Shown in pieces: positions 57,821 through 57,911 of a stretch of 64,000 nt of DNA. The notes beneath the pieces are model-generated. The model was not told where the DNA came from. It saw only the letters and a program-made list of their open reading frames with translations, and did not search any database. The stretch covers positions 22,123-86,122 of the IMG/VR virus record IMGVR_UViG_3300011013_000008; one strand, written 5' to 3'. Each line of letters starts with the position of its first letter. Position 1 is the first letter of the stretch. The translations under genes were made by a program, and so were the position numbers. This stretch comes from a virus.

Positions 57821-57911
57821 TTGGCATGATTTATGCTAGAATGATTATCTAGCAAGAGTTGTGCCAATTTTCAAGCTGGCACGAATTATGCTATAGCAAG
57901 AATCATGCCAA
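57821..57911. promoter_or_regulatory. four sigma54 -24/-12 motifs in two convergent pairs
   Basis: TTGGCATGATTTATGCT(+), TTGGCACAACTCTTGCT(-), CTGGCACGAATTATGCT(+), TTGGCATGATTCTTGCT(-); all GG-N10-GC. Confidence 0.75.

Follow-up and report, generated by a model that had tools for sequence, protein, structure and literature searches.

Among the sigma factors of bacteria, sigma-54 stands alone in that its binding to DNA is silent and depends for firing on an activator driven by ATP, and to our knowledge it is almost unstudied in phage biology. In this study, we examined a 64,000-nucleotide stretch of viral DNA (the window; bases 22123-86122 of the 86,122-bp record IMGVR_UViG_3300011013_000008, with position 1 at the window start) which carries four sigma-54-type sites in alternating orientation within 91 bp of a non-coding control region. 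The record comes from an uncultured virus in a subsurface metagenome, has a GC content of 33.5% and has ends that overlap by 123 bp, which points to a circular assembly. The closest described counterparts of the sites are the sigma-54 (RpoN) promoters of bacteria. Those mapped in Salmonella, for example at pspA, glnA, hypA and rsr (PMC3844500), share with the phage sites the -24 GG and -12 GC elements, the distance between them and the flank preferences (TGGCAYG/A ... TTGCT), and the four phage sites match the consensus as closely as the mapped Salmonella promoters do (PMC3844500). The arrangement differs. A bacterial RpoN promoter stands singly before an operon and has an upstream enhancer for a bEBP (an enhancer-binding protein of bacteria), whereas here four sites alternate in 91 bp in a genome with no activator gene.

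Sigma-54 sites are also known outside promoters. In E. coli and Salmonella, the holoenzyme binds silently at non-promoter sites that have no obvious transcription unit, and the roles proposed for these orphan sites include interference and help in promoter search (PMC4591121, PMC3844500). The orphan bacterial sites are, however, scattered singly inside genes and are often weaker at -23/-11, whereas the phage sites are consensus-grade, intergenic, clustered and phased.

Among phages, some promoters of Pseudomonas phage YuA are said to be sigma-54-dependent, and three of its fragments with "-24/-12" elements were active in a promoter trap (Ceyssens 2008, cited in PMC10914365). In the form in which that citation reports it, this is the only published claim we found of a lytic phage using host sigma-54. 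In none of the three YuA fragments (NC_010116, our locus L303; 38392-38570, 40888-41035 and 47152-47312) is TGGCAY-N5-NTGCW matched; the first has instead a promoter of the sigma-70 type, TTGACC-17-TACAAT. The YuA sites are single and belong to the late region, whereas the phage described here has an array. A different hint at phage use of the sigma-54 machinery is Htm (Gp204) of the T4-like Mosigvirus AV110, which has a bEBP-like fold without the GAFTGA loop (bioRxiv 10.64898/2026.10.06.757011); no DNA sites have been described for Htm and, unlike AV110, the present genome yielded no relative of the bEBP fold. A full-text literature search found no description of sigma-54 site arrays in phages. 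To judge from its sequence, the array is a real and conserved feature in which a known element, the sigma-54 site, stands in an arrangement and a setting that we found described nowhere.

Four sigma-54-type sites in 91 bp

A pattern search found exactly four matches to TGGCAY-N5-WTGCT at 57822-57910, in +/-/+/- order and each with the GG-N10-GC spacing. Site 1 (57822-57837, + strand) reads TGGCATGATTTATGCT, is preceded by T and followed by A and, with a pyrimidine at -27, G at -20 and A at -10, fits the extended sigma-54 consensus. Site 2 (57851-57866, - strand; TGGCACAACTCTTGCT) is a perfect TGGCAC-N5-TTGCW. Site 3 lies at 57877-57892 (+ strand; TGGCACGAATTATGCT), and site 4 at 57895-57910 (- strand; TGGCATGATTCTTGCT) repeats site 1 in inverted form, with agreement at 16 of 18 positions (89% complementary). 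Compared with TGGCAC-N5-TTGCW, site 2 has no mismatch and the others have 1, 1 and 2, and the flanks of the four sites fit the extended preferences (Y before TGG, G or A after TGGCAY). Sites 1 and 2 face each other across 13 nt, a back-to-back gap of 10 nt separates sites 2 and 3, and sites 3 and 4 face each other across only 2 nt. The search thereby reproduced what a first-pass annotation of the window had reported of the alternation, exact spacing and facing gaps of these near-consensus sites. The annotation had also proposed a comparison with a shuffled background; 0.13 pattern matches are expected by chance per 64 kb against four found, and four or more occurred in 0 of 100 shuffles. No further match occurs in the whole 86,122-bp genome, in which a reversed-pattern control gave 0. 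By every sequence test that we ran, the array is of the sigma-54 (-24/-12) type. One overlapping element was considered at site 1, where TTGGCA and TAGAAT could suggest a sigma-70 promoter; the two are 10 nt apart, which is too short.

Recurrence among phages and the identity of the binding protein

Related phages carry comparable sites. In the contig L056, whose TerL is 57% identical to that of the present phage, a four-site +/-/+/- array occupies the same place, between an A2-like gene and terS. L127 (TerL 56% identical) has four tandem TGGCATG units at this place, all in one direction, of which two are full sites. A site pair stands in front of terS in L083 and after the rightward operon in L068, L014 and L055, where it adjoins five tandem repeats, and the divergent gap of the cultured Vibrio phage PG07 (MH645904; L125:5145-5177) contains one pair, with DnaA-like boxes next to it. 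A strict site is missing from the examined flanks of most TerL relatives at 50-59% identity. The convergent arrangement that the first-pass annotation had suggested looking for in related phages is found in L056, as the same array, and in PG07, as a pair; the left terminal repeat of T5 has no sigma-54 site, so that the array is not a general T5 feature. When 16 sites from this phage and five related contigs are aligned, TGG-A and TGC are invariant and the spacing is fixed, and the spacers vary. The first-pass annotation had reasoned that relatives which keep the palindromes and not GG-N10-GC would speak for a hairpin or a site for a phage protein; the reverse is seen, as it is the two-part unit of fixed spacing that is kept.

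The same design is found well beyond these relatives. A pattern scan of viral contigs located face-to-face pairs at at least 120 loci and, in the 145 pairs among the matches listed, the gap between the two sites has a sharp peak at 2-5 nt. Back-to-back pairs are equally common (L223-L302). Their gaps fall mainly into the classes 7-10, 17-20 and 28-29 nt, and this helical period of ~10 bp implies a face-of-helix constraint between two bound factors. The array of the present phage follows both patterns, the 2-nt gap of sites 3 and 4 lying within the main face-to-face peak and the 10-nt gap of sites 2 and 3 within the main back-to-back peak. Tandem sites have starts 25-28 nt apart. Strict alternation is the rule among distinct viral clusters, with forward (F) and reverse (R) sites in the orders FR (65), RF (52), FRF (35) and FRFR (14), so the FRFR order of this array recurs in 14 other distinct clusters. 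Sites that stand singly or in tandem are also common among viral loci, and some other phages carry dense arrays, with as many as 25 sites at one locus. In all, the carriers comprise 209 loci that form 115 groups at 80% identity and range from 30 to 66% in GC content. In one array-bearing contig (L060:4100-4140), a run of about 35 T is found in the control region, near the array and other palindromes; this run may be an assembly artefact or the mark of a genome end.

To judge from its distribution, the alternating layout appears to be specific to phages. We defined a three-site core as at least three alternating sites in which facing neighbors are 1-6 nt apart and back-to-back neighbors 4-11 nt apart, and sites 4, 3 and 2, read on the minus strand with gaps of 2 and 10 nt, form such a core. 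A complete scan found the core at 33 viral loci, and it is absent from 596 Gb of sequence from 185,579 bacterial and archaeal genomes. Plain pairs with a gap of 1-6 nt occur 28 times in the bacterial and archaeal genomes, mostly on short contigs of metagenome-assembled genomes, and at least 119 times in the viral collection, which is far smaller. Position is also constrained. Wherever the shared TerL cluster has a member no more than 3.5 kb away, the pair lies upstream of the terL start (44 of 44 pairs), at a distance of 0.3-3.3 kb, and the present array likewise lies upstream, 2.2 kb from the start of terL. By a crude open reading frame (ORF) call, 22 pairs are in divergent intergenic regions and 9 in convergent ones.

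The positions that the search pattern leaves free bear on what the sites bind. Across 468 distinct viral sites, T is found at -27 in 68%, and G and A at -20 in 70% and 25%, respectively; -19 is a purine, -16 a pyrimidine and -10 an A. At the intergenic sites of Salmonella mapped by chromatin immunoprecipitation on microarrays (PMC3844500), a hand count gives G at -20 in 19 of 29 and A in 10 of 29. Because the free positions match the sigma-54 consensus, we read the motif as a sigma-54 site. The GG-N10-GC spacing, moreover, never varies across the relatives and the ~115 groups, whereas the inter-site gaps and the spacers do. We rejected a dimer-operator reading of the TTGCT..AGCAA and TGCCA..TGGCA palindromes, as their internal spacing varies and that of GG-N10-GC never does.

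It is conceivable that the 16-bp unit is bound by another protein of phage or host, for example the neighboring A2-family protein, and that its likeness to a sigma-54 site is convergent or coincidental. An A2-family DNA-binding gene adjoins the sites here, in L056 and in L127, the region is crowded with further operator-like repeats, and the ~10-bp back-to-back periodicity is a geometry imposed by a protein, whichever protein that may be. We nevertheless find this explanation improbable. Apart from TerL, no protein family is common in the flanks of 129 loci, the next largest cluster being present in 16 of the 129, and BLAST gave no relative of the A2-like gene in the other flanks. In T5, A2 is present and the sites are not. 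The free positions match sigma-54, and the same motif is kept in genomes of 30-66% GC, unlike phage operators, which drift fast; in two phages, bEBP-type genes also co-occur with the sites. As 115 diverse groups share no common flank family besides TerL, a universally conserved host protein is favored, and such a protein would explain the diversity of the carriers far better than a phage operator protein would.

The inverted repeats could also matter as DNA, either as a cruciform or hairpin formed by the nested repeats or as an origin or terminase recognition signal beside terS. Folded as single-stranded DNA, the 91-bp element reaches -21.1 kcal/mol against -10.8 kcal/mol for shuffles (z = -4.3), with sites 1 and 4 complementary to the degree given above; arrays always lie upstream of terS-terL, and some abut iteron-like tandem repeats. 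The stability of the fold, however, follows from one motif being repeated in both directions. When one arm is compared with the other in the 145 pairs, their N5 spacers match at a mean of 1.6 of 5 positions, which is near chance, and pairing of the arms is therefore not what has been selected. The tandem sites of L127 cannot form a hairpin, the many single and tandem sites do not suit such a structure either, and TerS would be too diverse for one shared recognition site across 115 groups. We consider a structural or recognition signal very unlikely indeed.

Two possible roles: poised two-way promoters or a silent trap

The reading that we tentatively prefer, though we would give it slightly less than an even chance, is that the sites are real docking sites of the host sigma-54 holoenzyme which are used as poised, activator-gated two-way promoters. 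The holoenzyme would bind the array in a silent closed complex. In a face-to-face pair with abutting -12 elements, the start of each site would lie inside the other and, from the -24/-12 numbering, the two starts would be ~20 bp apart with diverging transcripts; since these starts lie inside the opposite site and read apart, the pair would act as an interdigitated two-way promoter and would not lead to collision. A facing pair would hold one polymerase at once, in either direction, a back-to-back pair probably two, and the four-site array two polymerases in any combination of directions. Firing would follow only upon remodelling by an AAA+ enhancer-binding protein (a bEBP), leftward into a block of small ORFs (57595 to 56133) and rightward towards A2-like and dmp-like genes. 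As the phage has no activator gene, the activator would have to be supplied by a host bEBP or an unrecognised phage factor. The silent bound polymerases would also stand in the way of strong leftward sigma-70 promoters.

A comparable geometry has reportedly been found by Warman et al. in 2021 for bidirectional sigma-70 promoters, whose -10 elements are said to overlap and whose starts are said to lie ~18-20 bp apart and to read outward. The facing sigma-54 pairs are like these in being interdigitated on opposite strands. The sigma-70 pairs, however, arise from the near-symmetry of TATAAT, whereas a sigma-54 pair needs two full 16-bp sites and must therefore be selected for.

The first-pass annotation had held that the four sites cannot all be productive promoters and that no ORF lies downstream of any of them. 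We find no support for the first point, and the second is wrong. The facing pairs would be read divergently, and activator-type proteins of two other phages, described below, suggest firing. The leftward sites 2 and 4 precede the first ORF of the small-ORF block (57595-57329, - strand) by 226-300 bp; this block, downstream of the two sites, comprises seven ORFs of 36-112 aa without known family (56133-57595, - strand). The minus strand of 57596-57820 contains no sigma-70-like promoter scoring at least 9/12, and the block has none nearer than the array, which argues for sigma-54 promoters here.

Activator genes in other carriers are relevant to firing. A bEBP-type gene is present in one of 34 array-bearing records, the complete 53-kb phage G014 (L221; IMGVR_UViG_3300024331_000030). 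The product of its gene (L221:15828-16772, contig bases 35828-36772, - strand) is a bEBP-type protein of 314 aa that has a full Sigma54_activat domain (E 1.7e-53), Walker A and the GAFTGA loop and in which no helix-turn-helix or other DNA-binding domain was found. Promiscuous activators of the type seen in G014 have been described (PMC3844500). Strict sites number 11 in the G014 genome, and the control gave 0. Five sites are in intergenic gaps of a minus-strand gene block and are co-oriented with its genes, and a three-site array is found in a divergent control region, upstream of plus-strand genes. One G014 site lies 14 nt before a start codon, a near-leaderless arrangement. The phage G035 (L305) has 6 strict sites, against 0 in the control, and a homologue 50% identical to the G014 protein; GAFTGA was read in the G014 protein only, and that of G035 is called bEBP-type by homology. 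The occurrence of a bEBP-type gene together with scattered sites in both phages points to real transcription. The G014 lineage very probably transcribes from such sites and the arrays very probably belong to the same system.

Several observations count against two-way promoters in the phage described here. Its own 86-kb genome contains no detectable bEBP and no sigma-54 DNA-binding or core-binding domain, and the proposal presupposes an rpoN gene in the host. Strong sigma-70 promoters already serve both flanking operons and terS, which leaves no obvious need for sigma-54 promoters. Sites 1 and 4, at the two ends, face inward, so that every transcript would have to cross another site. The rightward sites lie ~720 bp upstream of the A2-like gene (58628), whose own sigma-70 promoters intervene, and transcripts would have to pass 720 nt of repeats and terminator-like hairpins. 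In other phages, arrays of 10-25 sites exceed what promoters would be expected to need, and T5 itself has no such sites.

Some of these features would suit a non-productive trap, in which sigma-54 holoenzyme is bound and never fires. Such a trap could serve as a sink for sigma-54 after replication, as a stable protein roadblock or insulator that separates the strong opposed sigma-70 promoters, or to brake or anchor the first-entering DNA. The lack of an activator in this phage, the inward-facing end sites, the strict alternation that prevails in other phages and the density of the largest arrays are all consistent with it, and so is the absence of the three-site core from the 596 Gb of bacterial genomes, since ordinary promoter use does not yield that core. 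The setting fits as well, with two strong leftward sigma-70 promoters reading towards the array and A2-like and dmp-like genes of pre-early type beside it, and closed complexes are stable without a bEBP (PMC3844500). On the other hand, the two phages with bEBP-type genes scatter such sites, and G014 has an array besides, which points to firing, and pairs favor divergent regions upstream of operons. Capture of the holoenzyme would also tie up core polymerase that is needed at the sigma-70 promoters of the phage. An E. coli cell has ~100 molecules of sigma-54, which the four sites on one infecting genome would be too few to titrate, and a sponge effect would be possible only after replication, its strength depending on how far the genome is replicated and on how abundant sigma-54 is in the host.

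The decoy or roadblock put forward in the first-pass annotation is thus still a live reading, in keeping with the pre-early setting, but it is the less favored of the two, and we regard it as unlikely. Any link of the array to the Psp and Rtc responses is pure speculation. The more general proposal would be that arrays are a phage device for holding host sigma-54 polymerase, without transcription, on control DNA beside the packaging genes, which in T5-like phages would be the first DNA to enter. There the polymerase would act as a brake, insulator or sink, and sigma-54-dependent stress and defence responses would be disabled as well. We find this equally doubtful.

The control region and its meaning for phage biology

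The array sits in a ~1-kb non-coding stretch (57596-58627) with many other repeats. To its left are two exact 19-nt units with an ATATC-N8-GATAT dyad, 22 bp apart (57691-57731), which lie 110-190 bp left of the rightward sites and may have an operator-like or enhancer-like role. A perfect 19-bp palindrome, TTATGAC-TTAAG-GTCATAA (57763-57781), stands between these repeats and the array. Three 27-nt tandem repeats of ATAAGCTCAGTTTATGAYGATTTTGCT with an inverted end copy (57911-58010) abut site 4 directly. Tandem repeats of 22-27 nt in 3-5 copies adjoin a pair both here and in L068 (12297-12470), though their sequences differ, and in L127 short tandem repeats are found ~130 bp from the sites. The tandem repeats beside the sites might be iterons or activator sites.

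Further right, two leftward units (58102-58261, - strand), in each of which a sigma-70 promoter is combined with a GC hairpin and another of terminator-like form, read towards the array. The promoter at 58261-58232 is TTGACA-18-TATAAT (12/12), the second copy of the unit has TGCTATAAT at 58153-58145, and the GC hairpin is GCCGATCATTTTTCGGC. These units may encode two short non-coding RNAs of ~40-60 nt or may be attenuators before the array. Two strong rightward sigma-70 promoters, 11/12 each (58328-58560, + strand), precede the A2-like gene. On the other side of the small-ORF block, the terS-terL packaging genes (54299-56114, - strand) have their own perfect sigma-70 promoter, TTGACA-17-TATAAT at 56114-56086. 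The GTG at 56094, which was called as the terS start, is overlapped by this promoter, so the true start of terS must be further downstream. In L056 and L127, a sigma-70 promoter of equal strength stands directly before terS. No IHF sites and no DnaA boxes were found at 57500-58700.

The rightward operon begins with the 151-aa gene of the T5 A2 family (58628-59083, + strand), the first gene right of the control region, which is followed by a 274-aa gene and the dmp-like phosphatase gene. A protein atlas pointed to the A2 family; BLASTP against T5 A2 gave an E value of 5e-4, and a four-relative profile of the protein aligned with T5 A2 in hhalign at 89.6% probability (E 1.9e-6, 108 columns). A Pfam scan left the gene unmatched, which is uninformative since T5 A2 itself is likewise unmatched. 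The dmp-like gene (60432-60959, + strand) encodes a HAD-type phosphatase of the T5 pre-early deoxynucleotidase family and was found by tblastn with the T5 and PG07 dmp proteins (33-35% identity, E ~1e-11). Like the first-step-transfer DNA of T5 with its injection stop signal (NC_005859), the region is repeat-rich and non-coding, has strong divergent sigma-70 promoters and is adjoined by the A2 and dmp families. It differs from T5 in having no DnaA boxes and no A1 homologue that a search of the genome could find, and in a gene order relative to terS that is inverted with respect to both T5 and PG07. From these likenesses, the array region looks like a pre-early control region. That the array may lie in first-injected DNA, as the first-pass annotation held, would agree with the A2-family and dmp-like genes on its right; the argument is one of synteny.

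The TerL is 51% identical to that of Vibrio T5-like phages (Demerecviridae), and the genome also encodes a DNA polymerase, an SbcC-like nuclease, a ribonucleotide reductase and tRNA genes. By TerL identity and gene content, the virus is a distant T5-like phage. Among cultured phages, neither megablast nor blastn found a match to the 1.1-kb region, and no close relatives of its TerS were found in viral contigs. In the assembled contigs of one DNA run, a single long contig extends to 56226 and is followed by ~1-kb pieces up to ~61.9 kb, with a depth of 15-23 across 56226-61900 and 13 elsewhere. The pattern may reflect variation among strains or a repeat within the pre-early block, and is at most a weak hint of a terminal repeat. 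Elsewhere in the window, the head gene (42214-44178, - strand) appears to be a maturation protease-major capsid fusion of 654 aa. A 456-aa ORF at 47203-48573, considered as the capsid gene, has no phage match and was dropped in favor of the fusion.

A consensus-grade sigma-54 array is thus found in the master control region of a lytic phage, and the same design is present in ~115 viral groups, a recurrence that points to a recurrent phage strategy. The arrays may be part of a phage programme run on the form of polymerase that is spared by anti-sigma-70 takeover, or they may be a means by which phages park or disarm sigma-54 polymerase. Both options are directly testable because the cultured Vibrio phage PG07 carries a pair.

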